This document shows, piece by piece, positions 5,762 to 59,018 of a stretch of DNA of 64,000 bases. Both the position numbers and the translations under genes were made by a program. The notes below the pieces were generated by a model, which was not told the DNA's origin, ran no database searches, and worked only from the letters and a program-made list of their open reading frames with translations. The first letter of the stretch is position 1. Each line of letters begins with the position of its first letter. The DNA is from a virus (lineage: Duplodnaviria > Heunggongvirae > Uroviricota > Caudoviricetes > Herelleviridae), in the IMG/VR virus record IMGVR_UViG_2974542590_000001, positions 91,054 to 155,053 of that record; one strand, given 5' to 3'.

Positions 5762-6606
5762 GGCTCCCCAAGCGCTTCCAATAGGGAACTCTTGGAAATT
5801 ATATAACAACTACCACTTTTTTTAAGTCCGTATTCTTTAAATAATTCTAGTGCTAACGGGTCATCAGTAGCATCAATCTTAGCACCTAAGCCAAGTTTAC
5901 GAGCACGTAACAATAGTTGTGTAAATGCTACATAAGCCACTCCACTTGTAAGGTCGTCTGATTGATAGAAAGCTAAGTATAAATAGCTACCCTCTTTACG
6001 ATAACCTGCCACACCACCAAGTTCTCCGGTTTCTCCTTGAAGAACTAAGTATGAAGAACAATCAGTTGAAAATGCCCCATTTAAACTACCTGCCTCAGTT
6101 TTAAGTTTAGCAATTTGTTTTGGGTCTATACCATTATGGTCATCTCCAATAATTGTTTTGCTTAAATCTCTAGCATTTCTTGGCTCAACATTTTCCTCTG
6201 TTTGAGTGTCCTTATCTAATGGGTTTTTATTATCATCATCTTCTCCGGAACTGTCTTCGTAGATAGTAGTCGTCATCATTTTACCATTTCTCATTACTCG
6301 TCTTTTAACTGGCTTCAACTTTGATAAATCTTTTTGACCACCTTTAATTAAATAGTCATTTAGTGAATCACAACTATCAGCATAGCAGTATAGGTCATAA
6401 AAGGAGTTAAAACCATAAGCCTTCACAATATGTGAATAGTCTTTTGATAATTTTTCATTTTCTGATATAACGTACCCATAGTTTAACTTCTTACCTAGCA
6501 TACCTTCTAAAAAGGACTTACTAACTGTAGCTTCTACAGGTTTAATCTCTGGAACAGAACTAAGAAGATTATCAACAAGAGCTTGGTATTCTTGATTGTC
6601 ATTCAT
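5758..6606 (-). CDS. protein with acidic N-terminal region and C-terminal GNAT-like acetyltransferase fold
   Basis: R-x-x-G-x-G/A motif RARKLGLGAK and surrounding beta-strand pattern ...AYVAFTQLLL... suggest a GNAT fold. Weak call. Confidence 0.4.
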   Translation of the reverse strand: MNDNQEYQALVDNLLSSVPEIKPVEATVSKSFLEGMLGKKLNYGYVISENEKLSKDYSHIVKAYGFNSFYDLYCYADSCDSLNDYLIKGGQKDLSKLKPVKRRVMRNGKMMTTTIYEDSSGEDDDNKNPLDKDTQTEENVEPRNARDLSKTIIGDDHNGIDPKQIAKLKTEAGSLNGAFSTDCSSYLVLQGETGELGGVAGYRKEGSYLYLAFYQSDDLTSGVAYVAFTQLLLRARKLGLGAKIDATDDPLALELFKEYGLKKSGSCYIISKSSLLEALGEP

Positions 6607-6710
6607 GTAAACGTCTCCTTTATTGTTATGACAAGAAAAATAACTAGTGCTATTATTGACAAGTAGTATAATAGCATATTATTTTTTGTCAATCAATAGC
6701 TAATTTGATA

Positions 6711-6843
6711 AAAATGTCCTATTTTAAATTTTTGTCTCCCTTATATAATATATTATACTATATATACTTAATAACTAGATATAGGTATATAGATATATAG
6801 TATTAATATATAAGGACGTAGAAAAATTAAAATAGGACATTTT
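6711..6843. repeat. palindromic element: 22-bp inverted repeat (AAAATGTCCTATTTTAAATTTTT / AAAAATTAAAATAGGACATTTT) flanking ~88 bp of TATATA-rich DNA
   Basis: Arms read directly at 6711-6733 and 6822-6843. A second copy at 13804-13939. The core motif is also present as a palindrome inside terL intron 1 (7728-7750). Confidence 0.7.
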
Positions 6844-6849
6844 GCTTTT

Positions 6850-7488
6850 TTAAGTAAATTGAGTAAAAATATCAGGAGGTGTAGGGTTCAATTGAGTAGA
6901 AATCCAATCAGAGTTAAACCCGTAGTCATCTGCCCCTGTAAATACGTTCATCAAATGTTCATAACCTAACATGGAATAAACACTAGCTTGTGAATAGTGG
7001 TCATCACCTTTACGTCCAATAGTTTGTCGGAATCCTGTAGGAGATTTTTCATCCTCTTCATCACGAATTACTACATTTCCCCAGTGTTCAATGTAAAGCA
7101 TTAGTTCACTATCCATTTTATGGTAGAAACCAATAACTCCATCTTTCATGTTTGAGATGTATCGTTTATTCTGCATTAGCTTATCAGCAGATACCTTGTT
7201 ACCTTGAACATTCCAACTAGGCACTAAGTTACCTGTAGATTTAGGTGTAGATGGATATACACAACCAAATACACGGTCTTTACCATAAATCTGAATCAGT
7301 TTAGCAACTTTATCACCAGAGTCACCAACATCAGCAACGATAATATCAGGTTCATATGGTGCTAATTGTAATCGAATTGACTGAATATCTGTATCAATTG
7401 CATCAGGGTTTAACGGGTTAGCTTTACCTACAGAGAACAATTTAATTAAATCTACTTGACCATTCGTTCTAACGCCATGAATGGACAC
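6850..7488 (-). CDS. terL: terminase large subunit, last exon (nuclease domain); the reading frame probably continues upstream toward ~7676
   Basis: The ORF starts MSIHGVRTNG... and contains ...IIVADVGDSGDKVAKL..., an RNaseH-like terminase nuclease-domain pattern. Upstream of the first Met at least the next ~5 codons (to ~7503) are open. The stretch 7504-7676 was not verified stop-free and does contain in-frame-candidate stop triplets. Confidence 0.6.
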   Translation of the reverse strand: MSIHGVRTNGQVDLIKLFSVGKANPLNPDAIDTDIQSIRLQLAPYEPDIIVADVGDSGDKVAKLIQIYGKDRVFGCVYPSTPKSTGNLVPSWNVQGNKVSADKLMQNKRYISNMKDGVIGFYHKMDSELMLYIEHWGNVVIRDEEDEKSPTGFRQTIGRKGDDHYSQASVYSMLGYEHLMNVFTGADDYGFNSDWISTQLNPTPPDIFTQFT

Positions 7489-7676
7489 CCAGTGTCTGTT
7501 TCCCCAGTCAATACCTACAGAGATAAACTTGTAATCTCCACGGTCTCTAGGAGATTCTGGGAGGTCTCCACGTCTATTACGTTCTACGTCACTAGCATTA
7601 ACAGTAAGTTTCTGGTCAGCATATGGATACGAATTACCGCTACTTTCGTAGTATTTTGTTACTGCTCTTAGCAGTC

Positions 7677-7949
7677 GGACTAGACTATATCATAACCCTT
7701 AGTTTAGGTTAAGGGTTCTCTGCTTTACATGTCCTATTTAAAATAGGACATTTTTATCTAGTTCTTGGCTACTCCATTTAGTAGCTTACCTAGAAATTTA
7801 GTCGTTAGGCATTTATGCACTTACAGTGCAATTTAGCACGGGATTCCCACTGTCCTATTTTAGGATTTAGGGTCTCTTATCAGGATATTGGTTATTTTCC
7901 TATGCCCGTTTAACAGAGTTTTCGACAATTGTTACCAATTGAAGGGGCG
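7677..7949 (-). mobile_element. group I intron (td-like IA2 core, no ORF) within terL
   Basis: On the minus-strand RNA: ...GTAATCCCGTGCTAAATTGCACTGTAAGTGCATAAATGCCTAACGACTAAA... and a 3' ...GATATAGTCTAGTCCG. These match the AATCCCGTGCTAAATTG / GCCTAACGACTA / GATATAGTC blocks as I recall them from the T4 td intron (recalled sequence, not checked here). Boundaries approximate. Confidence 0.6.
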
Positions 7950-8360
7950 TTACTCACCCAATGTATAGTTATAGAACGCTTGTTTTGATAGTGATGTTAA
8001 TTCTTTTGTTTTTAATTGGTCAGCAGATACCCAAACAGCGTTCATTTGAGAAATCATGTATCCTCTAATACCTAAACCATTTTTAGTACGGTCTGGATAT
8101 TTAGGAACCCATATACCATTGTACCAACGGTCTAATGGTTCTCCACATTTTTGACAAACGAATTGGAAAGAGCCATCCACAACTGTTTTAGCAATTGGGT
8201 CTACCCCTTTAGGGTTTACACAAAGGATGTTCCCTCTACGTTCCACTGGTGCCTCTGGTACATAGTCTTCATAGTTCATTTGGTTATAATGATTACACTT
8301 ATCACATTTGTGTAGATACCAGTATTGGTCAGACTGTTCAAACAAAGCATGGATGCCCAC
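7950..8360 (-). CDS. terL: terminase large subunit, internal exon
   Basis: 136-aa ORF (..ILCVNPKGVDPIAKTVVDGS..) bounded on both sides by intron-core sequence. Confidence 0.55.
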   Translation of the reverse strand: MGIHALFEQSDQYWYLHKCDKCNHYNQMNYEDYVPEAPVERRGNILCVNPKGVDPIAKTVVDGSFQFVCQKCGEPLDRWYNGIWVPKYPDRTKNGLGIRGYMISQMNAVWVSADQLKTKELTSLSKQAFYNYTLGE

Positions 8361-9653
8361 ATCTGGTGCGCTCGAATGTACCGTAGCTTTCGCTATACTT
8401 TAACACTACCTTAGGTAGTCGGACTAGACTATATCATACCCTATCTGATAGGGCTTCTGCTTTACATTGATTTACCTTGTTAACAATATGTTGCTCAATA
8501 GATTTCTCAGTCATCAAATAATTCACACGTAGTAGGTTAATGTGATTTTCCTCTGCGTACTCTGTTTTTTGCTTGTCTCGTCTTTGTTGAGATGCTAATT
8601 TTTTATCTCCACCAAAGTAAGCCACAGGTTTAAAATGTTGCACACCATCATATTCGATTAACAAGTTGCAATCGGGGATATAGAAGTCGAATCTTAGGTA
8701 AGAGCCATTGTTCTTTAAATCTTCGTATCCTTTTTGTAACTCGTAAGGAATTTTATGATTGTCTAATATTTTAGTAACAAGTTGCTCTCCTTTGGATTGT
8801 TTACAACGGGGACAACGGTTACCTCTAAGAAAATCTTTAGGTGTAACAGCATAGGTAAACCCACAAGCTATATGAGTAACCTCTACTTTTGTATGATTAT
8901 TTTTGTACTGAGATACAAGCTTGTATTCACCATTTGACAGCTCAGTTACTTCCTGACTAAACTGTTCTGTACTTTTACGTTTCGTTCCATAACAGTTTGG
9001 ACATCTACGACCTCTTAAAAAGTCTTTCGGTGTCATTTCGAATGTAGTTCCACAAGTATGATGCAAAATTTTAATTTTTTTAAAGCTCCGTATATACGGA
9101 GTAATCTGTGTGTACTCTATACCCGCTACTTGCTTAAACCGTTCTGCAAAGTCTTTCGGGTCAGTAGTATTTATTTTGCAATGACATCTACGGTTATCGT
9201 AGATAAAGTGGTTAGTGGTTGTCTCAAATGTTTCTCCACATTCTGCATGGTAAAACGTAACTTTTTGGTTACCTCGCACATAATCTGAAACTCTTTTGTA
9301 CTCGGCTCCTACAAGGTCATATATCCTTTTGTCAATATCTTCATTAGTAATTTTTTTAGCCATTTCCTACCTCCTACAATGTATAATATAGCATACATAC
9401 CGTAGTTGGGGGCAGTTAGGCTAAACTGGTAAATCAACTTTTATAGGCTTAGCAAACTAGTGTTTACTGCACCTAAGTTTAGTCGTTAGGCATTTACAAG
9501 CTTACGCTTGATTTAGCACGGGATTACCTCTATCCTTTAAGGACTTAGGCTCTCTTATCAGCTTATTCCTCCTTACAAATGAGTAAGGTTGGTTATTTTT
9601 GTGTACTTTCAGCTTTGCCCGTTTAACAGAATTTTTCAAAGGTCATTACTGAC
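8361..9653 (-). mobile_element. group I intron within terL carrying a homing-endonuclease ORF
   Basis: The same conserved core blocks as the 7677-7949 intron (tagtcgttaggcatttacaagc...atttagcacgggattacctc... on the + strand), with the HE ORF 8434-9363 in a peripheral loop. Boundaries approximate. Confidence 0.55.
8434..9363 (-). CDS. intron-encoded homing endonuclease: tandem CxxC zinc-finger repeats plus C-terminal PD-(D/E)xK nuclease motif
   Basis: The zinc-finger repeats read HTCGTTFEMTPKDFLRGRRCPNC and IACGFTYAVTPKDFLRGNRCPRC. The C-terminal nuclease motif is ..RFDFYIPDCNLLIEYDGVQHF... Paralogous to the ORFs at 10124-11044 and 54471-55202. Confidence 0.6.
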   Translation of the reverse strand: MAKKITNEDIDKRIYDLVGAEYKRVSDYVRGNQKVTFYHAECGETFETTTNHFIYDNRRCHCKINTTDPKDFAERFKQVAGIEYTQITPYIRSFKKIKILHHTCGTTFEMTPKDFLRGRRCPNCYGTKRKSTEQFSQEVTELSNGEYKLVSQYKNNHTKVEVTHIACGFTYAVTPKDFLRGNRCPRCKQSKGEQLVTKILDNHKIPYELQKGYEDLKNNGSYLRFDFYIPDCNLLIEYDGVQHFKPVAYFGGDKKLASQQRRDKQKTEYAEENHINLLRVNYLMTEKSIEQHIVNKVNQCKAEALSDRV

Positions 9654-10034
9654 CTAAGCCCCAATTAGTTTAGGGGTGCTCCAACGAGTAACAATCTTAT
9701 ATGGAGAAGATGACATAGATTCCAATGCAGAAGCTTCGGCTAATGCAGGAACACGGTCGTACTCGTCCATAGATAGGTAATCAATATCGACCCCTTCTAC
9801 AGCTCCCGGTTTAGAACTTGAACGGAAGTATAAAAAGCTATTACGAATCTTCTTAGCCTTTAATGAGTCTACTTCTGGGTCAATAATCGTACTGTAGTAA
9901 CCACGTTGTAATACTGGGTCAAGACGTGTTTGTACAAATTTAGTCATTTGTTCATTTGTTGGGAAGGTATACAAACACTTAACTGCATCGTAACTATGTG
10001 TATCTGCAAAGTGTAGCATGGTTCCTACACCCAT
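9654..10034 (-). CDS. terL: terminase large subunit, internal exon (Walker B region)
   Basis: The pattern ...KIRNSFLYFRSSSKPGAVEGVDIDYLSMDEYDRVP is similar to the T4 gp17 Walker B neighbourhood. Confidence 0.55.
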   Translation of the reverse strand: MGVGTMLHFADTHSYDAVKCLYTFPTNEQMTKFVQTRLDPVLQRGYYSTIIDPEVDSLKAKKIRNSFLYFRSSSKPGAVEGVDIDYLSMDEYDRVPALAEASALESMSSSPYKIVTRWSTPKLIGA

Positions 10035-11333
10035 TTCACTTACGTTATACCCTCGGTTTCCCGATATTTATTAGGGGACTAGACTATATCATCAACCTAA
10101 TTTTTGGTTTAGGTTGCTCTGCTTTACTTTATATTTTCTTCTAAGAATTTTTTAACATCTGATAGAGTTTTAACCGTATATGGAACTTCAATTAGATTAA
10201 AACCTTTAGCTTTAGCGTACTCTCTTTTTAACTCATCATTAATTTGCTGTAACTCAAACTTAATCTGGGCTTTTTCTTTTGACATACCTCCGAAGTTCTT
10301 ACACTTGAAGTGTTGTTCTCCTTGGTATTCGATAAGCAGTTTCTTACTCGGAACATAAAAATCATAAGATAGCTTGTTTATATTCTTTAAGTCATCAAAT
10401 GTTTTTTGCATTTCAAAAGATAGTCCGAGTTGAGTTAACACAGATTTAACAAGTTTCTCTCCGTTAGGCATGTTGCAGTACTTGCAAGAAACACCTTTGT
10501 AAATAACATCTGATAGTCGAGTATATGATATGTTACCACACATTTCATGTAGTATAGCTACCTTAGTTTGCATATTAGTGTACTCACCAATAATTTTAAA
10601 GTCAGTACCTATTGTCTCTTGCATTTTTCGTTCAGCTTCTTCTTTGGTTAACCTTAATGAATCCTTAGCGCATTTCGCACATCTAGTACCACATAGAAAG
10701 TTACCTGCTGATATTTTACATAAGGTTCCACATTTGTTGTGAATAATATCGATAGGTGTAGCTCTGTTTACATATTTACCAACTACAGTGTATTCATCGC
10801 CAACTAGTGCAAACACTTCTTTACTAAAAGTCTTTGTGTCTTTTCTAGTAGCATTGTTACCAAAACATTGGGGACAACGACTCTTAGAAAGCCTGTTGGG
10901 TGTTGTGGTGTATATGTTTCCACAAGTATTATGTCTAACCTTGATTGGGACGTTTGACTTTATATAAGGTTCTAGTGGAGTGTATTCATCCCCGTATACC
11001 TTATACAAGTCAGCTAAAAATTCTTCATTTGTTTTTCTTCTCATTCGTGATGCAACTCCTTAGTGCTTTCTATATGTAATATAGCACACATTAAGTTTTG
11101 TCAGTTGACATCATAAGAAAATATATTTTTTTATCTAGTTCTCACTAACCCCATTTGGTTAGCTACCTAGAAATTTAGTCGTTAGGCATTTATGCACTTA
11201 CAGTGCAATTTAGCACGGGATTACCTCTATCCCTTTCGGGACTTAGGTTCTCTTATCAGCTTATTGGTTATTCAGCTATGCCCGTTTAACAGAGTTTTCT
11301 TTACAAATCGCTTTATAAAGGGGCTAATCTTAA
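10035..11333 (-). mobile_element. group I intron within terL carrying a homing-endonuclease ORF; inserted in the Walker A codons
   Basis: The conserved core lies at 11150-11300 (+ strand tagtcgttaggcatttatgcacttacagtgcaatttagcacgggatt). A 3' GATGATATAGTCTAGTCC lies at ~10070-10090. The exon-1 ORF ends ...IKSRQLG just upstream. Confidence 0.55.
10124..11044 (-). CDS. intron-encoded homing endonuclease (zinc-finger + PD-(D/E)xK family)
   Basis: Repeated C-x2-C motifs, and a C-terminal ..KLSYDFYVPSKKLLIEYQGEQHF.. matching the 8434-9363 paralog. Confidence 0.6.
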   Translation of the reverse strand: MRRKTNEEFLADLYKVYGDEYTPLEPYIKSNVPIKVRHNTCGNIYTTTPNRLSKSRCPQCFGNNATRKDTKTFSKEVFALVGDEYTVVGKYVNRATPIDIIHNKCGTLCKISAGNFLCGTRCAKCAKDSLRLTKEEAERKMQETIGTDFKIIGEYTNMQTKVAILHEMCGNISYTRLSDVIYKGVSCKYCNMPNGEKLVKSVLTQLGLSFEMQKTFDDLKNINKLSYDFYVPSKKLLIEYQGEQHFKCKNFGGMSKEKAQIKFELQQINDELKREYAKAKGFNLIEVPYTVKTLSDVKKFLEENIK

Positions 11334-11600
11334 CCCAAGCTGTCTACTTTTGATTACAGCTTTAGTTCGGTGTTGGTCATTAATAATTTTTACTTGCCAA
11401 GGTCTATGCGCTTGGGCTTTTTGTTGGTCACGTCCGGAAATCATAAATGTAATCGGATGATTACGAACGGAGTGGTTTCTTAGTAAATATGTGGACGGGG
11501 TTAACATGTCTGTGATGTAGGCAAGCTGTGCAGTTGTTATTTTGTCCGTCCCATACATTTCTTTTGCCATTTTAGCAATATGTTGTGCTTTATTTGTCAT
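11313..11600 (-). CDS. terL: terminase large subunit, first exon; the trailing 7 codons are intron sequence
   Basis: The ORF translation ends ...TKAVIKSRQLG LRLAPL*. SRQLG is the start of the SRQLGKT Walker A motif known from T4 gp17. The ATG overlaps the upstream stop. Confidence 0.55.
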   Translation of the reverse strand: MTNKAQHIAKMAKEMYGTDKITTAQLAYITDMLTPSTYLLRNHSVRNHPITFMISGRDQQKAQAHRPWQVKIINDQHRTKAVIKSRQLGLRLAPL

Positions 11601-12064
11601 TAAAACGTTGCTTCGTTTTCTTTGTTCATTTGGATTTCCTTATCCAATAGCATCTTATCAATTTCTTCATCCGATAATTTAGCTAATTCCTCCAACGAAA
11701 CAACTTCCTCCTCCTCTCCGTCTATGGTAGCCTTTTCAGTGCTTACCTTGTCTGCAATAATATCTTTTTGCGTAGCACTAAGAGCAGGTAATTGACCAGT
11801 TCCCTCTTGCATTCCTGCATTGATATTATTAATTTGCATGTAGATTTGGAATAGACGGGTTAAATCCCCAACGTCATCTATATCTATTGAACCTGCCATA
11901 ACTTTAGCCATGAACTGGTTAATTAACGTGAGAGAAGCGTTATTAAATGTGTCACGTAATCGTTGTTCGGATGTACGTTCCATTTTCTTTTGTTCAGCAT
12001 TTTCTTTAATACGGTCTGCCATACTCATGTGGCTATTCCTCCCCCTTTTTACTTGTATACGCAT
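11600..12064 (-). CDS. hypothetical acidic protein immediately upstream of terL (terminase small subunit candidate by position only)
   Basis: 154-aa ORF whose stop overlaps the terL start. Confidence 0.45.
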   Translation of the reverse strand: MRIQVKRGRNSHMSMADRIKENAEQKKMERTSEQRLRDTFNNASLTLINQFMAKVMAGSIDIDDVGDLTRLFQIYMQINNINAGMQEGTGQLPALSATQKDIIADKVSTEKATIDGEEEEVVSLEELAKLSDEEIDKMLLDKEIQMNKENEATF

Positions 12065-12320
12065 AGCAAGACCGTATGTCTTCGCACATGTTCAATCGTA
12101 CTAAATCTGACATCTTACAGCTTACATGTGCTGTAGTAACTATTGCAGAACCATTAGTAAGAACAAGTCTAGACAACGGTCTTCCACATACTGCACACAT
12201 CCGTGTAGCACTTGCTATGCGTTTATCCCCTTTTCGTATATTTGTTGTCTTTTGAGCTTTGCTAAAAATATACTGCCTTTTTTGCTTTATTTCTTCTCTT
12301 GTAAGGGACATATCCTCCAC
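12033..12320 (-). CDS. small zinc-ribbon protein
   Basis: CAVCGRP...C motifs. 32-nt overlap with the downstream gene. Confidence 0.4.
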   Translation of the reverse strand: MEDMSLTREEIKQKRQYIFSKAQKTTNIRKGDKRIASATRMCAVCGRPLSRLVLTNGSAIVTTAHVSCKMSDLVRLNMCEDIRSCYAYTSKKGEE

Positions 12321-12330
12321 CCCTTATTAA

Positions 12331-12600
12331 TTATTTTTTGATTAACGCTTTTATCTCTTTTAAATCACGCAGTGCTTCATGAAGCTGTTGCTGTAGATTA
12401 TCTTTCTTTTTCCTCTGCTCATAAGAATCAAAGATAATACTAGCTATCCAAGCCCACAAAGAACCCCCTACAAGCATTGTTGCTGTAAAGTGTTGTTCTA
12501 AGCCTAGCATATCTGCAATCAGCTTACTTGCACAAATCATGATGATAACAAAGATGGTGATAAAAATTGATTTGTATAATAATTTTTTCCGTACCTTCAC
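12331..12600 (-). CDS. small membrane protein (holin-like topology)
   Basis: Two predicted TM segments plus a charged C-terminus. Confidence 0.4.
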   Translation of the reverse strand: MKVRKKLLYKSIFITIFVIIMICASKLIADMLGLEQHFTATMLVGGSLWAWIASIIFDSYEQRKKKDNLQQQLHEALRDLKEIKALIKK

Positions 12601-12717
12601 TTTTTCTCACTCTTCCGTTTATATTTTTAGCCTACATATTTAATCTAGCACACCTGATTATAAAGGCTTTGGTGTACTATATTAAAGATAGCTCTAGGAA
12701 AGAAGAGAGGCGATAGA

Positions 12718-12975
12718 ATGTACCGACTAGCATTTATTGCTATGTTATTACTACAGTTGTTCGTTTACTCAGCATCCTACTATGTCACCCGAGCTATACA
12801 GTACAAAAAACTGCAAGCAGATTTAAGTCCTTTGGCATCGTATAAGTATCTTTTGATATTATACGGACTTAGTGTTGGTAGCGTGGTTATGCTCTTCATT
12901 GGGCTGTATACTCCAATTATTTACCTTGTCGGATGTATTCTGGGCATAGGCGGTTACATGTGGTTTTCTAACTGA
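12718..12975 (+). CDS. small membrane protein
   Basis: Two hydrophobic segments. GAGAGG RBS. Confidence 0.5.
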   Translation: MYRLAFIAMLLLQLFVYSASYYVTRAIQYKKLQADLSPLASYKYLLILYGLSVGSVVMLFIGLYTPIIYLVGCILGIGGYMWFSN

Positions 12976-13014
12976 CCGGGAGATTGAGCTATACAACCGA
13001 GAGGGGGAGCACAA

Positions 13015-13362
13015 ATGAACGATTACCAAATAGGTGACCTAGTATTAAGACTGCAACGATTGGAAGACAAGCTCCAGCATGGAGAACTAACTGAGAAGGG
13101 CATTAAACAGGACAACACAGAACTGAATAATGCAGTTAGTGAATTGAAGGACATCGTTAACAGTCTTGATAAAAGGTTAGCTGTTCATGAAGAGAAATAT
13201 TCACATCTTACGTACCAGATTACAAAACTGGAAGAAACCATTGATGCTCTCGAAGGTGTAAACGACAAAGAGTTTGACCATAAAAGGGACATCGTGGAAA
13301 ACATCTTCATGATTGTTCTCGGTGCGGTTGTGACTTACGTGTTCAGCATTTTTAAACCATAG
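13015..13362 (+). CDS. coiled-coil protein with C-terminal TM anchor
   Basis: GAGGGGGAG RBS. Heptad-like repeats followed by IFMIVLGAVVTYVFSIF. Confidence 0.5.
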   Translation: MNDYQIGDLVLRLQRLEDKLQHGELTEKGIKQDNTELNNAVSELKDIVNSLDKRLAVHEEKYSHLTYQITKLEETIDALEGVNDKEFDHKRDIVENIFMIVLGAVVTYVFSIFKP

Positions 13363-13416
13363 AATATGTTATACTTATACTGTAATTATAGCATATTCTG
13401 AAAGGAGAAATTATAA

Positions 13417-13755
13417 GTGAACTATCCAACACACGAAAAGGTCGCAGAAATTACAGTAGGTACTGACAAGGTTTACCTATTTCCACGCTATATGGGCGGA
13501 ACTGTAGTTGATGCACTAACACAAGCTAATGGCTCTGTCAGAGGTAAAGAATTAACTTTCTTGCCTGTTCATACAGGTACTGATAGAACAACAGGTATTC
13601 GATATTTAAATCTACGTCAAGCTACTTTTATTGACTACAAGATGGTAGAGGTACCTACTACAATTACTGACTTGTATTTAGCTCCTAAAGATGAAACTGA
13701 GGAAGCTAAAGAAGCTAGAGAGTATACAATCAAGGAATACTTTGAAACACGGTAA
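13417..13755 (+). CDS. hypothetical protein
   Basis: AAAGGAGA RBS. 112 aa. Confidence 0.5.
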   Translation: MNYPTHEKVAEITVGTDKVYLFPRYMGGTVVDALTQANGSVRGKELTFLPVHTGTDRTTGIRYLNLRQATFIDYKMVEVPTTITDLYLAPKDETEEAKEAREYTIKEYFETR

Positions 13756-13803
13756 GAGGGCATTTTGCTCTCTTTCTTTTTATCTAAAAGTGAATTGTCA
13801 GAA

Positions 13804-13939
13804 AAATGTCCTATTTTAATTTTTTGCAAGTCTTATATATATTAATAATATATAGTCTAATATTTATATAATTTAGATATATAGATTTAATATATAGTAT
13901 TAAGTATATAAGGAGGTCAAAAATTTAAAATAGGACATT
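13804..13939. repeat. second copy of the palindromic element (AAAATGTCCTATTTTAATTTTTT ... AAAAATTTAAAATAGGACATT)
   Basis: Arms at 13804-13826 and 13919-13939. Internal TATATAAGGAGG as in the 6711-6843 copy. Confidence 0.7.
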
Positions 13940-14146
13940 AATTTGAATATTCTGATAATTTAACTATTTATAATCTTTTTTGAACTTTTTGTATTTAGTT
14001 GTTGTCAGGATGATAAAAATGTTGTATACTTTAGTTAGTGATTGACATACCTCAATTACTTCCTCTTTCTTTAAGTCTTTAACTATTGAGTAAGTTGCTG
14101 AATCAGTAGTTAAGAAAAAAGTTGTTAAGTTTGTAAAAAAGTTGCT

Positions 14147-14181
14147 AGTTCTATCAGCTTTTGTGTTATAATGTTGATAGA
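14147..14181 (+). promoter_or_regulatory. sigma-A-type promoter (TTGCTA-N17-TGTTATAAT) overlapped by a 10-bp-arm palindrome
   Basis: The promoter and palindrome read agTTCTATCAgcttttgtgttataatgtTGATAGAAct. Confidence 0.5.
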
Positions 14182-14254
14182 ACTAAAATTCACCTATGAT
14201 GAAACGGTATCATGACTGGCTGTTTTTTCTGACCTGTAATATTGTTTAACTTTT

Positions 14255-14677
14255 ATGCTAAACTCAAAACAGATTGGAAATATAACAGAAATAAAATGTA
14301 TGCTTGCCTTTTTAGAACAAGGATACAACGTTTTAACCCCCTATGGAGATTGTGAAAGATATGATTTTGTTGCTGATATAAAAGGAAATCTTGTTAGAAT
14401 TCAAGTAAAAACTTCAAAATTAGCAAGAAGAGGGAATGGTTTCAATTTCTCAATGAGAAGTAGCAATCGACAAAATGGAGCAATACTTCATCACCGATAT
14501 ACCAAAGAAGAAATTGATTTCTTCGCAACATATTATCAAGATAAATGTTATCTAGTTCCCGTTGAAGAGTGTGGAGCAGAAAAAACATTAAGACTTGACC
14601 CACCAGAAAATGGTCAACGTTATTCGATGGCTGAAGATTATGAATTGGAGGTTATGTTGAAACGATATTATGGCTGA
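14255..14677 (+). CDS. PD-(D/E)xK-family nuclease
   Basis: The motif ..CERYDFVADIKGNLVRIQVKTS.. has a D...(D/E)xK arrangement. Confidence 0.45.
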   Translation: MLNSKQIGNITEIKCMLAFLEQGYNVLTPYGDCERYDFVADIKGNLVRIQVKTSKLARRGNGFNFSMRSSNRQNGAILHHRYTKEEIDFFATYYQDKCYLVPVEECGAEKTLRLDPPENGQRYSMAEDYELEVMLKRYYG

Positions 14678-14815
14678 TGTAGAAAGCAACCAGTTCTTGT
14701 AGGTTCAAGTCCTGCTAGGTGAGTTGCTAGTCAAGATTACTTGGTTAGCAGATTCGTGTTTGTTAATAGCATGATAACCTCCCTCTTCCCCAAATTTAGG
14801 GAGGTTCCACCTTTT

Positions 14816-14887
14816 TGTTAGGTCGTCTAACAGGTAAGACACAATTCTTCGGAAATTGTGATACAGGTTCGAACCCTGTCCTGACAG
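14816..14887 (+). tRNA. tRNA-Arg (anticodon TCG)
   Basis: Hand fold: acceptor TGTTAGG/CCTGACA (one GU pair), D stem GTCT/AGAC, anticodon stem CAATT/AATTG with loop CTTCGGA, T arm ACAGG-TTCGAAC-CCTGT. Confidence 0.6.
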
Positions 14888-14901
14888 TTGTACAGTTACG
14901 G

Positions 14902-14995
14902 CTGTACAAACTATGTTTCTATGTTATAATGGTTGTAGGCTTTTAGAGACATCTCTCTTACCCCTGTTTAATTACAGGGGTTCCCTTTTTGCTTT
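14902..14995 (+). terminator. two hairpins downstream of tRNA-Arg (TTGTACAG-ttacgg-CTGTACAA, and CCCCTGT-ttaatta-ACAGGGG followed by TTCCCTTTTT)
   Basis: Read directly. The second hairpin has a U-rich tail. Confidence 0.45.
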
Positions 14996-15000
14996 TGGAA

Positions 15001-15119: not shown

Positions 15120-16230
15120 AAAAAGGTGTTTACAACTTTGTAATGTTATGCTATATTAGTATTACACCACAAGTTAGTGGTTAAAAATTGAAAACTTAAT
15201 AGATTTTGAACCTAGTGCAGAAAGTTTGAACAGCTTGCTAGGATAACGTGGCGTGAATCTGGATGTAACCGAAGGTGCGATAGTGCTTTTGGTTGCAGGT
15301 AGGTCTTATGGTAACATAGGAGTAACTATTAGTAAAAGCTAATATCAGTTAAGCGTTATGTGGAGTATACATGGATTGTAAGGTACAAGACTCTTGGGGG
15401 ATACAATAGACGTTCCTGTGGAAAAGAATCCAAGTTAGGTGGAAGTGTGAGAAGCTTGGCAGACCTTGGAAAACTCAAAAGACTCCCTTTGACGAGAACT
15501 GTAGAAATACAGGTTTAACAAGAGACCTTGGTACAAGTAGCTTAAGTCAGCGTTGGATGAAAATATTACAGAAGACATAAGGATATATGTTAATTAATAC
15601 TTTTAATAGCTGAATGTTTAGGTGAACGTTGTTAGCCACCGTGCTAGACCATACATTAAAGGCAGAGAGAAGCTATCGGGTAGCTCCCGATGGTTCAGCC
15701 TCTCTGAGTATGTGACCGAATGCAGTGAGTGTATATGAAGCAGGAAGAAAAGCCCTTAATCTATTAAGTTTTGAGTTTTTAAACATGTCACTGTGGCGGA
15801 AGTAGAAAATGCTATGGTAGTAAACCTGTTATGAGTAGTTTTTATCTATTAAGTTAACACTTTAATAGGCGTGAGTGGGGCAGTACCACTCCAGTGACTT
15901 AAAGAACCTACGGAAACAATCAATCTTATCGGATGCCGATTGGTTGGCTGAATTAAGCAGTGTGTCTGTGAATCAGTTAATAGGCATAAAATACTAGCAC
16001 AGACGTGTGCCACTCTCAGGTGTAGGTTAGGAGAGAAACATTAGCAACCGAGGGTTGGAAATGGGCGCTCAAAGTACACGAGCAAGGCGATGTCGGTAGT
16101 AATCGACGGAATCGGTGTAGGTTGCTTGATAGAGCTATAACTGCATCTCGTTTATGCGATGTGTTTTTTACAGATTAAATCATTCTAAGAGTGGTATTTT
16201 TATTTTACATAAAGGAGAGAATTTTCTCTT
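15120..16230 (+). ncRNA. ~1.1-kb ORF-free, GC-elevated, highly structured region
   Basis: No ORF of 60 aa or more on either strand, although flanking DNA is densely coding. TTTACA-N17-TATATT promoter at its 5' end. Multiple inverted repeats, e.g. CAGAGAGAAGCTATCGGGTAGCTCCCGATGG...CTCTCTG. Confidence 0.3.
15789..15907 (+). ncRNA. tRNA-like element bounded by GTCACTG...CAGTGAC (paralog of the 20515-20644 element)
   Basis: 5' GTCACTGTGGCGGAAGTAG... and 3' ...AGTGG-ggcagta-CCACT-CCAGTGAC. The same closing helix and TGGCGGAA motif occur at 20515. Confidence 0.3.
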
Positions 16231-39046: not shown

Positions 39047-39622
39047 ATGAGTAAGATTTGGTTCACGTCTGATACACACTTTGGGCAAGAGCGTACTTTT
39101 AAATATTCTATGCGAGGTATGTATTTTGATAATGTAGAACATGCTGATTTAGCTATGATAGAACGGTGGAACGATGTTGTAGATGAAGAAGACACTGTTT
39201 ACCATTTAGGAGATTTCGGTAACTTCGAAGTAGCTAAACAGCTTAAAGGTAAAATTCATTTATTATTTGGTAACTATGAACGGGATGGTAAAGGTGGATT
39301 TATTACTCCGGAACAAGAAAAATATTTTGAATTTGTTCGAAAAGGAGAAGTTGTCACTCTTGTAGACCAAAAATTAGTTCTTGTCCATGAGCCTTCCCAT
39401 ATGAGTTATTCAGAAGATAAAATCAAAGATGGGTACTTTGGCTTATTCGGACATATTCATGAAAAGCAAAAAGTAAAACGTAATGCTCTTAACGTAGGGG
39501 TAGACGTACACAACTTCACCCCAGTTAGTCTGGAGACTGTAGAGTTCTATCGGAATGCCATTCAAAATGTATACAATGCAGAGTGTTTCGATAACTTTGA
39601 ATTGGGAGGGTTGCTAGAATGA
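39047..39622 (+). CDS. calcineurin-like metallophosphoesterase
   Basis: ..WFTSDTHFG.., ..HLGDFGN.., ..GNYE.. and ..GHIHE.. metal-ligand motifs are all present. Confidence 0.6.
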   Translation: MSKIWFTSDTHFGQERTFKYSMRGMYFDNVEHADLAMIERWNDVVDEEDTVYHLGDFGNFEVAKQLKGKIHLLFGNYERDGKGGFITPEQEKYFEFVRKGEVVTLVDQKLVLVHEPSHMSYSEDKIKDGYFGLFGHIHEKQKVKRNALNVGVDVHNFTPVSLETVEFYRNAIQNVYNAECFDNFELGGLLE

Positions 39623-44929: not shown

Positions 44930-45160
44930 ATGTATAAAGGGTACATTATAGAAGAGAGGGAACTGTACCCCACTTGTCCATTTTGTAAGGAAACTATGAA
45001 AGATGAGGAAGACCTGTATCATTCTGGAATCTATAGTTCCGAGAATACGGAGGAGGGGGCAATTTGGGAAACAACTTGTCCAAATTGTGATAAGGTTTTT
45101 TATGTTAGAACACAGGTTCACTACTCCTATGAAACGTTTAAAGAAGAAGATTGTATTTAG
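44930..45160 (+). CDS. small zinc-ribbon protein
   Basis: CPFCKE....CPNCDK. Confidence 0.45.
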   Translation: MYKGYIIEERELYPTCPFCKETMKDEEDLYHSGIYSSENTEEGAIWETTCPNCDKVFYVRTQVHYSYETFKEEDCI

Positions 45161-45288
45161 GGAAAGGTTTCAATGCCCTAGAGAGATAAAAAATCCCAGT
45201 ATTTACTGGGATTTTTTTATTTAAAGTTGTTGACGTACTGAAAGGTATCTGATATACTATAGGTATAGATAGTTAAGGGGGAGAAAAC

Positions 45289-45771
45289 ATGCTTAAATCA
45301 TCGAATTTAAAACATGGAGACACTATTAAATATTTGTCTAGTACCAATGACAAGTTTATAAAGAACAAAGTATATCTAGTATGGGTAGTTGACCATAGCG
45401 GGATTCCAGTTGTACTATCAGAAGAACAGAACTATGTGTCTGTCATTGATTTAAACCCGCAGAACTGGGAGAGTAGTAAAGGACAAGTAATGGAAAAGAT
45501 TAACTTGAATGAAGTAGTTACTGAACTAGGTGTTAATAAAGATGATACAGAAGAGTATACACGTGCTTTATCTGATACACTACGAGGATATATTCACAGC
45601 GCAAGAGAAGAGCAAGGGTTATCGCAACGGGCATTAGCTACGAAGGCAGGCATTACACAAAAAGCCATTTCTACATATGAAAATGGGTTAACTGTAATTA
45701 GCTTACCATCCTTGTTCAAGATTATGGCTGTGTTAGGTATAGAAGTTACAATTTCAATTCCGGAGGAGTAA
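45289..45771 (+). CDS. protein with C-terminal XRE-type HTH
   Basis: ..LSQRALATKAGITQKAISTYENG... Confidence 0.5.
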   Translation: MLKSSNLKHGDTIKYLSSTNDKFIKNKVYLVWVVDHSGIPVVLSEEQNYVSVIDLNPQNWESSKGQVMEKINLNEVVTELGVNKDDTEEYTRALSDTLRGYIHSAREEQGLSQRALATKAGITQKAISTYENGLTVISLPSLFKIMAVLGIEVTISIPEE

Positions 45772-45773
45772 TA

Positions 45774-46088
45774 GTGACTGTTGTAAATAATACTATACTA
45801 GATAACTTGTCTTTTATTAACATGACAGAACGGGCGTTACTGCTACACAGTTATCTGTACTATGAATTAGATGCAATTAAAATCTCTGACCACCAGTTTG
45901 ACCATCTTATGTATCGAATGGTTGAACTAAAGAAATGGGACGAATTTAAAGAATCAGAGTTCTATGAAGAATTTAAAGACTTCGAAGGTGCTACAGGAAT
46001 GGACTTAGACTATGATAAACCTTTTTGTCGTAAATGGGCACATATATGGGGTCTAGATAAAGATAAAGCAGGAGGAAAGAAAAAATGA
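45774..46088 (+). CDS. hypothetical protein
   Basis: GTG start after GGAGGAG. Confidence 0.4.
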   Translation: MTVVNNTILDNLSFINMTERALLLHSYLYYELDAIKISDHQFDHLMYRMVELKKWDEFKESEFYEEFKDFEGATGMDLDYDKPFCRKWAHIWGLDKDKAGGKKK

Positions 46089-46939
46089 GTAATGAGTCTT
46101 TAGTAGGAAAATGGATGTGTGCAAGTGATACAGATGTGGAAGTTTGGAGAGCTTGTGCTTATTTCGACACCAAAGAAGATGCTATCCATGCAGGTAAACT
46201 AGCTGTAGATGCAATTAGAAATGGAAAAACTTTTGTAGAGGAGATTTGGGAACATGTAGAGGACATTTTAGGTTTTCTTCCAGAAGAACCAATCAACAGT
46301 TTTGTAGTTGGAAGAGTGGCTCCAGTTTACCTTCCTGTAGATGTTACGTCATTATTAGAACAAACCCAAGAAATGATTTATCAAGAGGTTGGGGAAGTTG
46401 CAGATTCTTATTACTTAACGGATGAGATTCCAGAAGACAAACAGGATGAATTACAATCTCTAATCATAGGTTGGTTTGCTAAGAATGGCTATGACTGCCC
46501 ATTTACTAAGATTGTAGATATTGAACCCGTATACATTTCAAGAGATGATTCTTTATATTTAGTTGGTGTACGAGTAGATGTTAGACCATCAGAAGTAATC
46601 GAAGGGGGCTTTACATGTACCACTCGTGTAATGAAAGTCCGAGAAGAAGACTTGAAAATTACTGAGAAACAGATTGAAAACCGTAGTAAAGAGCCAGACT
46701 ATCTGTTTAAAACTCGTGTGCTAAAAAGTGAGTTGGATACACCTCTTTGGGCATTTTGTAAAGATAACATCACAATGTATTCACTAGTGCGGGAAGCATA
46801 TGTAGATTCAAAAGCATCTGAATTTGAAAATAACATTAAAACGTTGCTAGCTTTTCATTATACCGAACAAGCTAACATGTTTAACAATAAAATCAAATCT
46901 CTAAAACTAGGAAAAGAGATTGGAGTGGGTGTGCAGTGA
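46085..46939 (+). CDS. hypothetical protein (284 aa)
   Basis: No recognisable motif. Confidence 0.5.
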   Translation: MSNESLVGKWMCASDTDVEVWRACAYFDTKEDAIHAGKLAVDAIRNGKTFVEEIWEHVEDILGFLPEEPINSFVVGRVAPVYLPVDVTSLLEQTQEMIYQEVGEVADSYYLTDEIPEDKQDELQSLIIGWFAKNGYDCPFTKIVDIEPVYISRDDSLYLVGVRVDVRPSEVIEGGFTCTTRVMKVREEDLKITEKQIENRSKEPDYLFKTRVLKSELDTPLWAFCKDNITMYSLVREAYVDSKASEFENNIKTLLAFHYTEQANMFNNKIKSLKLGKEIGVGVQ

Positions 46940-47319
46940 TGTCAGCAGATGAGGCTCGTAACAAGGTAGCCAACAGGGAACAAGAAATAAAGGAGAAAAT
47001 AGCTCGGAAATCCGCAGACTTCATTAATAATAAAGTACTACCTAGTATCAATAAAACAATAGAACTTGGCGGGTACTCTTGTAGAATTTCTGGTAATGAG
47101 TTAACTGAGCAGGAGCTTACAGCTATTAAAAAGGTACTAACAGCCAAAGGTTATAAAGTAACCATTTGGTCAGAAGAGTCTGTACGCTATGTTTGTGGCG
47201 GTCGCAAAGTGACAGGAAGAGATAGAGGACTAGAAATAACATGGTTTCCGCCAGAACCAGAGCCTGATAAGGTTGGATTACTAACCAAGTTGTATAATAA
47301 AATAACAGGAGGAAACTAA
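46936..47319 (+). CDS. hypothetical protein
   Basis: 127-aa ORF. Confidence 0.45.
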   Translation: MMSADEARNKVANREQEIKEKIARKSADFINNKVLPSINKTIELGGYSCRISGNELTEQELTAIKKVLTAKGYKVTIWSEESVRYVCGGRKVTGRDRGLEITWFPPEPEPDKVGLLTKLYNKITGGN

Positions 47320-47320
47320 T

Positions 47321-47563
47321 ATGAAATACATGGCGTTTTACATTGCTGACTTCTTATACCCAGATGAAAGAATCGGGGACTTATGCTTTTTCTATAATAA
47401 AGACACTGGCATGTTTGAAATGGAGTGTGACCCTGAAACAGCATACGAACCTACCGTTGTCTGCGATATGCCAGAGTTCTTACTGTTTAAAGTTCAAGGA
47501 ACCGAGGAAGAAGGAACAATAAAGCCAGTGGACAAAACTAAATTTTTAGAGGAGATTAAATAA
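47321..47563 (+). CDS. hypothetical protein
   Basis: AGGAGGAAACTAAT RBS. Confidence 0.5.
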   Translation: MKYMAFYIADFLYPDERIGDLCFFYNKDTGMFEMECDPETAYEPTVVCDMPEFLLFKVQGTEEEGTIKPVDKTKFLEEIK

Positions 47564-48318
47564 TGAAACTACGTACACTATTTGGTGGAAATAAAACCGC
47601 AGAAGAACTAGCTAGCCAGATTGCAGAAGTACCTGCAGATACAAACATCATGGTAACAAAATTACCTTTAGACGTGTTCTATGCGTTACCTTTCGAAACA
47701 ACACAGGTTCTCTCTTGGGGGGAAATTATAGATAAAGCAGAGGAATTAGAGGAACCAGATTGGATAGATAACTGGGGAGAAGGAAGCCCTTTCGTATATT
47801 GCAAGTCAAGTCAAACAGCTTTTTACCGTGCAAACCCTGTAGAGAGTGACCTATCCGTGGCAATTACCTCTGCGGGCGTAGCAGACCGAGACATTGTAGA
47901 CGAAGCTTACTTAACTGTATTCTTAAGTGGGTATGTTCCTGTGTCATTTCATGATATTGGTGTAAATGACTTGAAAAAACTAATGGCTTCTACAGATGCT
48001 ATTACAAAAAGTAATGTAGTTGTATCTGTACAAGGATTTGAAGGGGCGTTACCTGTAGTCCTTGCAGGTTTAATTGATTTACCTATTATTGCTGTACCGA
48101 CTTCAACAGGTTACGGTATCTCAGCAGATGGCTACACTGCATTAAACACTGCACTAACTAGTTGCACTTCTGGTATTTCTGTTGTGAATATCAATAATGG
48201 TTTTGGTGGTGCATCACAAGCTGTACGTATACTAGAACAGATAGAAAAAGCTAGAGAAGTCTTCTTTAAAAATGAAGGTACTCAACGTGTAGGGGGAGTA
48301 CAAAATGCCGTTTGTTGA
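47563..48318 (+). CDS. protein with C-terminal PurE (N5-CAIR mutase)-like / LarB-like domain
   Basis: Residues ~150-240 ..VVVSVQGFEGALPVVLAGLIDLPIIAVPTSTGYG...ALNTALTSCTSGISVVNINNGFGGASQAVRIL align by pattern to the PurE block ..VIIAGAGGAAHLPGMIAA.T..PVLGVPV...G.DSL.SIVQMP.G.PV.T.AI...A.NAALLAAQIL. Recall-based and unverified. Confidence 0.4.
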   Translation: MKLRTLFGGNKTAEELASQIAEVPADTNIMVTKLPLDVFYALPFETTQVLSWGEIIDKAEELEEPDWIDNWGEGSPFVYCKSSQTAFYRANPVESDLSVAITSAGVADRDIVDEAYLTVFLSGYVPVSFHDIGVNDLKKLMASTDAITKSNVVVSVQGFEGALPVVLAGLIDLPIIAVPTSTGYGISADGYTALNTALTSCTSGISVVNINNGFGGASQAVRILEQIEKAREVFFKNEGTQRVGGVQNAVC

Positions 48319-55371: not shown

Positions 55372-55515
55372 CTATTCGGTTACCTCTTCGAGTTCTTCGA
55401 TTAGTCTTTGGAATGCTTGGTAAACTTCTTCTGAATAATCATCTATATCCATCAAATCATTTTGTAATAGTTCCACTTCTTTTAATAGTCTTTCATATGC
55501 TTTGTTAGTTTCCAT
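55372..55515 (-). CDS. small acidic protein (47 aa)
   Basis: METNKAYERLLKEVELLQNDLMD.... Preceded by the TTGACA-N17 cassette and an AAAGAGAG RBS. Confidence 0.4.
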   Translation of the reverse strand: METNKAYERLLKEVELLQNDLMDIDDYSEEVYQAFQRLIEELEEVTE

Positions 55516-55818
55516 TCTTAACACTCTCTTTCATTTGTTTTATTTATCTTACAAATATAGAATACCAAAGTCATTGCTTAATGTCAATAAAAAAGACTAA
55601 ATGATTAGATAATAATTTTATAGCCCGATTTTAATACTGTACTAATCTTACAATCTGGCAAGCCTAACACCTCCATAGCAAAACCCGCCCGCCATGCTTC
55701 TTTACTCACTAGCCACCTAACGCCCTCATTTTCCACCGTAAGCACCTTATATCCTCCTTTAAGGTATTTATATGTAAAGCCCGCTAAAACCTCGCTACGG
55801 GCTTTATATGCCGTTATA

Positions 55819-56085
55819 TTATAGTCCTAGTTCTGAAAATAACTCTTTTTCATTTGGGTAGATAAGACTTACATTCTTATAAACAAATACTAATTCCGAT
55901 AACTCCTTGTTTTCTAGTTCTTCATTTGATATTTCTACGCTGTAAGCTCCTTGCATGTAAGCAATCAAAACCGGATTTGGATCTACTATGTTCCCTCTAG
56001 TTAGTTCATAGCCTCCTAACTCGTTATATGCTTCTAGTGTAGCGCCTTTGTGTTCTGCTAGTTTGATGAAGTCTTTTAGTTTCAT
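55819..56085 (-). CDS. hypothetical small protein
   Basis: AGAAAGGGAATGAAT RBS. 88 aa. Confidence 0.5.
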   Translation of the reverse strand: MKLKDFIKLAEHKGATLEAYNELGGYELTRGNIVDPNPVLIAYMQGAYSVEISNEELENKELSELVFVYKNVSLIYPNEKELFSELGL

Positions 56086-56137
56086 TTTTATTCATTCCCT
56101 TTCTTGTGTGAGTGAGAGAGGCTTTCCCCTCTCTCTC

Positions 56138-56284
56138 TTATTCTGGATACCGTCCCGTGTCTGCTAGTGTGTTCCCGTCTTCTTCGTCCTTGAATTGGTC
56201 AAAAAATCCCTCGTTTTCTAGTTCGTCCATGAAGTCCTTGAATTCTTTACTATCTAATAACTCGTCTAGTGTCTTGTATTCCAT
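56138..56284 (-). CDS. small acidic protein (48 aa)
   Basis: MEYKTLDELLDSKEFKDFMDELENEGFF.... GGAGGAAACAAC RBS. Replaces the antisense ORF-track call 56112-56321. Confidence 0.45.
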   Translation of the reverse strand: MEYKTLDELLDSKEFKDFMDELENEGFFDQFKDEEDGNTLADTGRYPE

Positions 56285-56496
56285 GTTGTTTCCTCCTTTT
56301 CGTGCATATCTTTTAGTTTAAATTGATAATTTGTTCTATTATTTAAATAATCAATTGTCCATTGTCCGCCATAATCATCAACGAAGTACATTTCACCATA
56401 TTTATTTACTACTACATTATACTCTTTACCTGTCGTCCACCAAGGTGTATCTGACTTCATACATACATATGTTTGCCCTTCGTTTGCGTTTAACAT
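56266..56496 (-). CDS. hypothetical small protein
   Basis: AGGAGGAAAACAAA RBS. Confidence 0.5.
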   Translation of the reverse strand: MLNANEGQTYVCMKSDTPWWTTGKEYNVVVNKYGEMYFVDDYGGQWTIDYLNNRTNYQFKLKDMHEKEETTWNTRH

Positions 56497-56831: not shown

Positions 56832-56841
56832 TTTTAGTTCC

Positions 56842-59011: not shown

Positions 59012-59018
59012 GTGTTTG

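Follow-up and report, generated by a model that had tools for sequence, protein, structure and literature searches.

Inverted boxes around AT-rich cores in Enterococcus phage EFP01 and their possible relation to replication origins of Herelleviridae

The question raised by this locus is what function could be attributed to a palindrome-like, AT-rich (adenine- and thymine-rich) element of about 130 bp that recurs between the genes of a phage. The element was recognized in a 64,000-nucleotide stretch of viral DNA, hereafter the window (positions 91,054 to 155,053 of the IMG/VR record IMGVR_UViG_2974542590_000001), in which each position equals the record position minus 91,053. An original prediction, made from the letters of the DNA, had placed two full copies there, A at 6711-6843 and B at 13804-13939, and both are present at these places. 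The 9-kb stretch around them is 100% identical to Enterococcus phage EFP01 (NC_047796.1; Herelleviridae, Brockvirinae, Schiekvirus); the rest of the 155,053-bp EFP01 genome was also examined, and a third full copy, C, was found at record positions 48,178-48,308, outside the window. The elements are real, non-random and conserved. As to their function, they are tentatively interpreted as origin-type modules, in which inverted initiator boxes surround an unwinding tract, and which would be ancestral at the locus of copy B (site B) and multiplied to site C in Brockvirinae and to site A in Schiekvirus; this interpretation falls a little short of probable.

The box, the AT core and their conservation

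Each element is composed of two inverted TGTCCTATTT boxes that surround a core of 57-62 bp with an AT content of 86-93%. An arm consists of the TGTCCTATTT box, a spacer of 17 nt with variation in its final 5-7 nt, and the start of the TATATA-rich core, and the distance from box to TATAT is constant in every arm (17 nt, or 16 nt in Listeria phages). In the binding-module model the box reads TGTCCTATTTWAWWTTT, and variants of it are recognized in SPO1-like phages (TGTCATATTT) and, putatively, in Kayvirus (CTCCTTATTT).

The exclusivity of the box was apparent from the 11-mer ATGTCCTATTT, which occurs in exact form eight times in the EFP01 genome, all eight of them within elements A, B and C or within a palindrome of a terL intron discussed below. 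When up to one mismatch was tolerated, nine occurrences were counted in the 64-kb window versus 2.3 +/- 1.5 in 100 shuffles, none of which (0/100) reached nine. The search of the genome and of relatives that had been proposed together with the original prediction thus disclosed a non-random motif, a third copy and the presence of the box in related phages. In an alignment of the three copies, the mean column identity is 78%, and B, C and A represent, respectively, the first, second and fourth lowest-GC (guanine plus cytosine) 130-bp intervals of the 155-kb genome, with copy B at 13.1% GC. Copy A is 82% AT overall, with a 59-bp core of 86% AT, and the 62-bp core of copy B is 92% AT. No open reading frame (ORF) of at least 40 amino acids is found within the elements, and a small ORF behind the AAGGAGG of the right arm was discarded for want of a start codon at a suitable distance. 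Looping of the DNA from one phased site to another is unlikely, since the box-to-box spans (122, 125, 127 and 133 bp) are out of helical register.

A general class of phage promoters was ruled out as the identity of the box, given that it is found nowhere else in the EFP01 genome, and the box is not known to match the SPO1 middle and late consensus sequences. In a full-text literature search, the box sequence matched only unrelated primers and no phage paper. Identity with a late promoter was likewise rejected, as the box does not resemble TGCTATATTA, the late-promoter motif of Listeria phage CKA15 (PMC12282133).

Conservation of the box extends across subfamilies. At the syntenic site B, the 10-mer is unchanged in Kochikohdavirus, in Listeria Pecentumvirus and in Bacillus Bastillevirinae, with one-mismatch variants in SPO1-like phages, despite a protein identity of only 38-54% among these box-bearing phages, which suggests a conserved sequence-specific reader. 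Site B holds two tandem elements in phiEF24C (Kochikohdavirus) and two elements in the Listeria phages P100, A511 and CKA15, where they are the lowest-GC intervals of the CKA15 regions retrieved. In the Bacillus phages BM15, Hobo and Bcp1 (Bastillevirinae) and in the SPO1-like SIOphi, the same site contains 5-7 boxes organized in iteron-like arrays. In this Bacillus layout, boxes in direct orientation with a period of 56 bp are followed by an AT core, which keeps a fixed distance of 17 nt to the inner box, and then by inverted boxes. At least two clustered boxes were detected downstream of the hemolysin-like gene in 22 of 30 IMG/VR loci, and five of the remaining eight loci are truncated. Two other IMG/VR matches were set aside as unrelated, L008 being an inverted-repeat contig and L139 having neighbouring ORFs (a P-loop ATPase and others) unlike Herelleviridae genes. 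As a separate observation, the partial genome of Enterococcus phage vB_Efa29212_3e (OP559179.1, 49718-49778) ends within a site B element, an example of assembly breakage at AT-rich inverted repeats of this kind.

Synteny with the proposed phage K origin and the surroundings of the copies

Copy B lies in the same syntenic place as the locus proposed as the origin of phage K, whereas copies A and C lie elsewhere. Phage K gp189 is the homologue of the hemolysin-like gene, and the next non-coding stretch is the one between gp190 and gp191. The order of features is gp107/gp108, terminator, copy B, tRNA-Arg and ROOL RNA in EFP01, and gp189/gp190, terminator, ori region, gp191, a long non-coding RNA (lncRNA) and tRNAs in phage K. 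The 450-bp gap between gp190 and gp191 was found to contain two units of about 190 bp, each formed by an AT tract of about 70 bp followed by AATAGGAG..CTCCTTATTTTCTAAATACGTACTTTTT. A previous study described this 450-bp region as the only untranscribed locus, with the lowest GC, "strongly suggesting" an origin, regarded its two direct repeats as putative Rep-binding sites, and also reported an abundant ROOL/GOLLD-like lncRNA at the place syntenic to the EFP01 ROOL (PMC9241854). In another study, the repeats, AAAAAGTACGTATTTAGAAAATAAGGAG, were located at 39,181-39,208 and 39,371-39,398 and the locus was marked "ori" (PMC11598898, citing Lobocka et al. 2012), and these coordinates coincide exactly with the two phage K units read here. 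Among the syntenic loci, a lack of transcription is reported for that of phage K only.

In both phages the locus is a lowest-GC, non-coding spot with repeated units (two in phage K), and a short motif ending in ...TCCT(T)ATTTT stands beside an AT tract of about 70 bp. They differ in that phage K carries direct 28-mers and an adjacent small palindrome, AATAGGAG..CTCCTTATT, instead of boxes bracketing an AT core, and in that it has one locus, whereas EFP01 has three dispersed loci in addition to the intron palindrome. It is because of this synteny, of the iteron-like arrays in relatives and of the lowest-GC cores that an origin is the best supported function for the elements. Genome termini or a pac site were ruled out, since in the relative iF6, whose 2,108-bp terminal repeats were experimentally mapped (PMC10054541), some 44 kb separate site B from the left end. 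At the origin proposed by the authors of CKA15 (AT-rich 185 bp downstream of CKA15_188), no boxes were found, and two TTGAC-type promoter-like sequences were recognized by eye.

The architecture recalls that of several known origins. In oriL and oriS of herpes simplex virus, inverted sites for the origin-binding protein UL9 are placed around an A+T tract, forming a palindrome of about 45-144 bp, and these origins lie between divergent promoters and in several copies per genome. The analogy is one of architecture only, as the virus, its proteins and its sequence are unrelated to EFP01, and it is limited further by the fact that palindromy beyond the boxes is not selected in EFP01. In iteron theta origins (lambda ori, Rep_3 and RepA_N plasmids) and in T4 oriF and oriG, repeated initiator boxes stand beside an AT-rich unwinding element, often near an initiator or helicase gene, and promoters abut the origin or feed into it; in T4, which possesses several origins, the unwinding element is located downstream of a promoter. 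However, the EFP01 elements carry only two boxes each, in inverted orientation, with true arrays only in the Bacillus relatives, and, in a further difference from T4 and iteron origins, the EFP01 box does not serve as a general promoter element in the phage.

The full copies were correctly described beforehand as intergenic and placed at transitions between gene blocks. Copy A lies between the last terL exon and the virion gene gp096, and is flanked by the terL stop codon (6850-6852) and the gp096 start (6606), both on the minus strand. Its left box, TGTCCTATTT, occupies 6715-6724 on the plus strand, with TATATA beginning 17 nt later, and its right box occupies 6830-6839 on the minus strand, reading AAATAGGACA on the plus strand; 19 nt past the left end of the copy, a sigmaA-type promoter (TTGACA-16-TATACT, 6665-6692, minus strand, 11/12 consensus matches) points toward gp096. 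Copy B, with its left box at 13807-13816 (plus strand) and its right box at 13928-13937 (minus strand), lies downstream of the gp106-108 mini-operon, which encodes a membrane protein, a hemolysin-like protein and a virion protein, and upstream of gp109, the tRNA genes and the ROOL RNA. A conventional intrinsic terminator of the gp106-108 operon (13754-13774, plus strand) stands just upstream of it, an order of terminator and then element also seen in phiEF24C and phage K, and a sigmaA-type promoter (TTGTCA-17-TATACT, 14002-14030, plus strand) lies 63 nt past the copy, toward gp109 and the tRNA array. Copy C is found between gp060 and the UvsW-like helicase gene gp059, starting at the gp060 stop codon and ending within the -35 hexamer of the gp059 promoter. 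An outward sigmaA-type promoter is thus located 0-63 nt past every EFP01 copy, in the local direction of transcription.

Such surroundings bring in an alternative, according to which the boxes constitute an operator or insulator. They would bind a conserved phage regulator that represses, times or insulates the abutting sigmaA promoters and blocks read-through from late operons lying upstream, and the AT core would serve for bending or as an UP-like element. Besides the strong sigmaA-type promoter next to every EFP01 copy, outward -35 boxes are found 3-5 nt from both ends of the elements in L138 and L141, and the elements occupy boundaries between temporal classes, the upstream operon being late and the tRNAs middle in CKA15 (PMC12282133). 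Only 0-7 nt separate copies A and C from the preceding stop codon, with no other terminator present, and a terminator stands there where the copies are absent: site A of phiEF24C is empty and has a canonical terminator and a promoter instead, and site C of CKA15 has merely a terminator. The silent phage K locus would also fit a repressed zone, and in Bacillus Bastillevirinae the site B array lies upstream of a divergent, adjacent gene of the XRE family of helix-turn-helix (HTH) proteins (BM15 gp61, L148 2595-2915). However, the distance from box to -35 ranges over 0-63 nt and is unphased, and half turns separate the box-to-box spans, which measure 122-133 bp. Moreover, a factor conserved across subfamilies would have a remarkably small regulon, given that the box marks only 1-3 loci per genome, neither the extreme AT core nor the fixed box-17-TATAT geometry would be needed, and the XRE-family gene was not found at site B in the Enterococcus, Listeria and Staphylococcus phages examined. 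An operator or insulator is regarded as unlikely.

Some features of the neighbourhood deserve mention in their own right. Next to copy B, gp109 (14300-14677, plus strand) encodes a PD-(D/E)XK endonuclease (PF11645, E = 1e-27) and seems to be an EFP01-specific insertion, as the homology of other Schiekviruses to the region ends near 14224. A full-length ROOL RNA (RF03087, 264.8 bits, E = 2.8e-60) was found at 15187-15773 (plus strand), inside the tRNA array downstream of copy B. Downstream of copy C, the UvsW-like helicase gene (record positions 45,064-48,114) holds an intein with a LAGLIDADG endonuclease domain, and its product has 1016 amino acids in EFP01 versus about 590 in the phiEF24C homologue.

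Arm complementarity, mobility and the terL intron

The inverted arms recognized by a repeat finder comprise 40 nt with 83% complementarity in copy A and 48 nt with 77% in copy B, and each element could accordingly be seen as a structure, that is, as an AU-rich bidirectional terminator or RNase III site of about 60 bp in RNA, or as a cruciform in DNA. The predicted RNA folds of the three EFP01 copies are indeed very stable (-43.1, -45.1 and -39.2 kcal/mol; z = -9.0, -9.9 and -6.0), copies A and C are in terminator positions, and a terminator scan of the elements and of the intron palindrome flagged only the latter, on the plus (antisense) strand. However, the arms are conserved as sequence and not as pairs. 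When 15 elements from 7 phages were compared, an arm never had its own partner as best match, the mean similarity beyond the box being 0.67 between own partners versus 0.72 with arms of other copies in the same genome, and no covariation of arms with their partners was found. In no element does the variable segment of 5-7 nt show complementarity, and the arms are of two types, "type 1" and "type 2", with one of each per element; by this criterion copy A is inverted relative to B and C. For these three reasons (partner never the best match, variable segment unpaired, one arm of each type per element), the complementarity is a by-product of two similar arms, and there is no selection for a hairpin.

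Further evidence points in the same direction. Site C of phiEF24C holds a diverged copy with a symmetric change, TTGTCC...GGACAA, which barely folds (z = -2.8) and retains its boxes. T-tracts are inconsistent, since a T-run follows copy A on both strands but is absent or weak after B, C and the B2 and C copies of phiEF24C, and the stems are AU-rich, thus lacking the G+C-rich stem of rho-independent terminators. A hairpin cannot explain the Bacillus arrays, whose direct-repeat boxes cannot pair, and it is also at odds with the syntenic phage K locus, which is not transcribed (PMC9241854). A known RNA family was ruled out as well, because no Rfam match covers the elements and only a group I intron and tRNAs were found in 6000-15000. 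Taken together, the unselected complementarity, the diverged phiEF24C copy C and the inconsistent T-tracts speak against a primary role as terminator, RNase III site or cruciform, a reading judged very improbable. Of the roles first suggested for the element, that of bidirectional terminator or late promoter was not sustained, in view of the T-tracts, of a box unlike TGCTATATTA and of the untranscribed phage K site (PMC12282133, PMC9241854); that of replication origin stands as a protein-binding box plus unwinding tract, without the extruded cruciform that had accompanied it; and that of binding site for a phage regulator is supported insofar as a putative phage-protein site forms part of the origin picture. 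What defines the elements would be, judging from the sequence comparisons, this putative protein-binding box, not a hairpin.

A mobile element had been suggested too. Miniature inverted-repeat transposable elements (MITEs), such as the Neisseria Correia and pneumococcal RUP elements, have 100-150 bp and terminal inverted repeats, are intergenic, may carry promoters or terminators, and can form RNase III-sensitive hairpins. The EFP01 elements could represent a comparable selfish, non-autonomous transposable or homing cassette, with terminal inverted repeats of about 37 bp, that spread to intergenic sites and to an intron loop. They share with MITEs the terminal inverted repeats, the AT-rich interior, a length of 110-135 bp and several non-coding copies; these are found at unlinked sites with unrelated flanks, their occupancy and copy number vary by genus (site A filled in Schiekvirus and empty in phiEF24C, tandem pairs at B), and in contig L034 the arms of copy A are 100% identical to the arms of two B copies. 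Nonetheless, no presence/absence polymorphism is seen within a genus, site A being filled in 31/31 Schiekvirus records with 92-100% identity, no target-site duplication was identified in the flanks, and no transposase candidate was identified, the related IMG/VR matches being Herelleviridae-type intergenic elements without ORFs. The paired-box pattern was absent from the genomes of 185,579 bacterial and archaeal species, one genome for each, save for three contigs of one metagenome-assembled genome in which the interior of the elements is GC-rich and unrelated; a host MITE or host repeat was ruled out on this basis. Moreover, the tips have been maintained in different phage subfamilies at a single syntenic site, and the universal cross-subfamily occupancy of site B, the strict conservation of the box and the direct-repeat arrays indicate function and not parasitism. 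A MITE-like nature is quite improbable, and the suggestion was not borne out by the fixed sites in the 31 Schiekviruses, the absence from bacteria and the lack of a visible target-site duplication, although rare and ancient copy-paste events must have happened.

One point in favour of mobility is found in the terL gene. In this gene (6850-12064, minus strand), four exons are separated by group I introns, three in number. HNH endonuclease ORFs (8434-9363 and 10124-11044), each with its own promoter and ribosome-binding site as judged by eye, are present in introns 2 and 3, and intron 1 (7489-7949) is ORF-less and the sole intron to pass the E-value threshold of Rfam, although its 24.7 bits do not attain the gathering score. 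Intron 1 holds the perfect 23-nt palindrome ATGTCCTATTT-A-AAATAGGACAT, which had been correctly recognized as lying in the ORF-less intron but whose coordinates are 7729-7751 and not 7728-7750. It corresponds to two head-to-head boxes without an AT core and, according to Rfam, lies in a peripheral insertion (loop) of the group I intron. This is the exact loop that holds a homing-endonuclease ORF or its remnant in homologous introns (EFP01 introns 2 and 3, and those of phage 113, EF1TV and CKA15 were aligned), and at the same position the EF1TV intron, which lacks an ORF, has a small hairpin, CCTCTTAAGAGG, that is unrelated. Among 50,697 phage records, an ORF-less intron with the palindrome was found only in EFP01. 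The palindrome and the left end of copy A, 1 kb apart, have 23 nt in common, including the flank GATAAAA, and we infer that the palindrome may have arisen by repair or template switching from copy A after loss of the endonuclease gene.

The half-site that had been proposed at 7852 probably does not belong to the system. This isolated TGTCCTATTT (7851-7860, plus strand; within CTGTCCTATTT, 7850-7860) lies in an intron hairpin that the terL intron of Listeria phage CKA15 also carries, and the number of 10-mers expected by chance per genome is put at about 0.6, or at one or two; because of this inherited hairpin and of the chance count, it is probably coincidental.

Other repeats were noticed in passing. 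Tandem-repeat blocks, (TAGCCTGCTACTTAGAAGATTTTAGC)n and (ATCCTATCCTAAGTGT / TATCC)n, are found at 62320-62459 and 62924-63028 of the window, and the same two repeat types, CTAAGTAGCAGGCTACAG and (TAGGA)27/(TAGGA)33, occur in a 1.2-kb "transcriptional dead zone" of CKA15 (L181 30344-31400). They represent a second conserved non-coding repeat region, and TCCTAT is common to these repeats and the box. At 55500-62200 (minus strand), about 10 small genes are each preceded by a near-identical promoter/5'-leader cassette (repeat families D1-D4), and several of them share the terminator GGCGGGAACACGTCCCGCC (D8). This cluster resembles a host-takeover or terminal-repeat region, the relative iF6 having 2,108-bp direct terminal repeats (PMC10054541).

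A possible origin module and its consequences

Gene context at copy C bears on the origin interpretation, as this copy directly precedes an operon of helicase, Rep-like, DnaB-like, exonuclease and primase genes. Within it, gp058 (phrog_1098) is a Rep-like protein. A winged helix (HTH_36) is found at its N-terminus, and homologues with as little as 26% overall identity still show strong conservation of the recognition helix and wing; gp058 is a candidate binder, nothing more. The cumulative GC-skew minimum of the genome falls at window position 12,654, which is 1.15 kb from copy B and at the major divergence of transcription.

In the mechanism envisaged, both the replication start at the elements and the identity of the binding protein are presumed. 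A conserved phage protein, for which gp058, encoded beside the UvsW-like and DnaB-like helicases, would be the best candidate, would bind the boxes head to head; the AT tract would be opened by the bound protein, perhaps aided by the sigmaA promoters that abut every copy; and the phage helicase/primase would then be loaded for bidirectional replication. Site B would be the ancestral, family-wide locus, from which Brockvirinae would have copied the module to the region upstream of the helicase gene (C) and Schiekviruses also to the gap between terL and gp096 (A), a core-less box pair ending in the terL intron.

Several observations weigh against the origin interpretation. The phage K "ori" is itself only a proposal; furthermore, the phage K repeat (CTCCTTATTTT...) and the EFP01 TGTCCTATTT box are about 7/11 identical, a weak resemblance, so that a putative homology with phage K is based on synteny and architecture. 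Gene orientation switches at the GC-skew minimum, which is hence confounded, and no skew step is seen at copy C, where genes on both sides are on the same strand; skew therefore neither proves nor disproves firing. The AlphaFold model of gp058 (pLDDT, predicted local distance difference test, 85.6) matches only generic winged helices, with transcription factors scoring equal to RepA_N plasmid initiators, DnaD and ORC. The ordinary terminators at site A of phiEF24C and site C of CKA15 are no less compatible with a transcription-boundary role, three full-length Bacillus-phage loci (L166-L168) have no box, and a box pair stands inside an intron, without obvious origin function. Finally, a 10-bp initiator site unchanged across subfamilies would be unusually conservative for origins.

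A broader proposal, possible but doubtful, is that TGTCCTATTT represents the recognition code of a family-wide Herelleviridae initiator, marking origins of the SPO1, Bastille, P100 and phiEF24C types; copy-and-paste of the module in Brockvirinae would then have given rise to Schiekviruses with three origins and to the core-less pair in the intron.

To our knowledge, no origin has been mapped at the sequence level for any Herelleviridae phage, and the only proposals found for this family rely on low GC, in phage K and, for another locus, in CKA15. Herelleviridae include workhorses of phage therapy, such as phage K, P100/A511 and Enterococcus myophages. A short box present in at least four subfamilies, at one syntenic site and around the lowest-GC DNA, provides mutable targets and a short list of candidate binders, and three short regions of Schiekvirus genomes are flagged as not to be disturbed or used for insertions in engineering. 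If, instead, the operator alternative were true, the boxes would belong to a conserved regulator-operator pair governing the tRNA/ROOL and replication operons.

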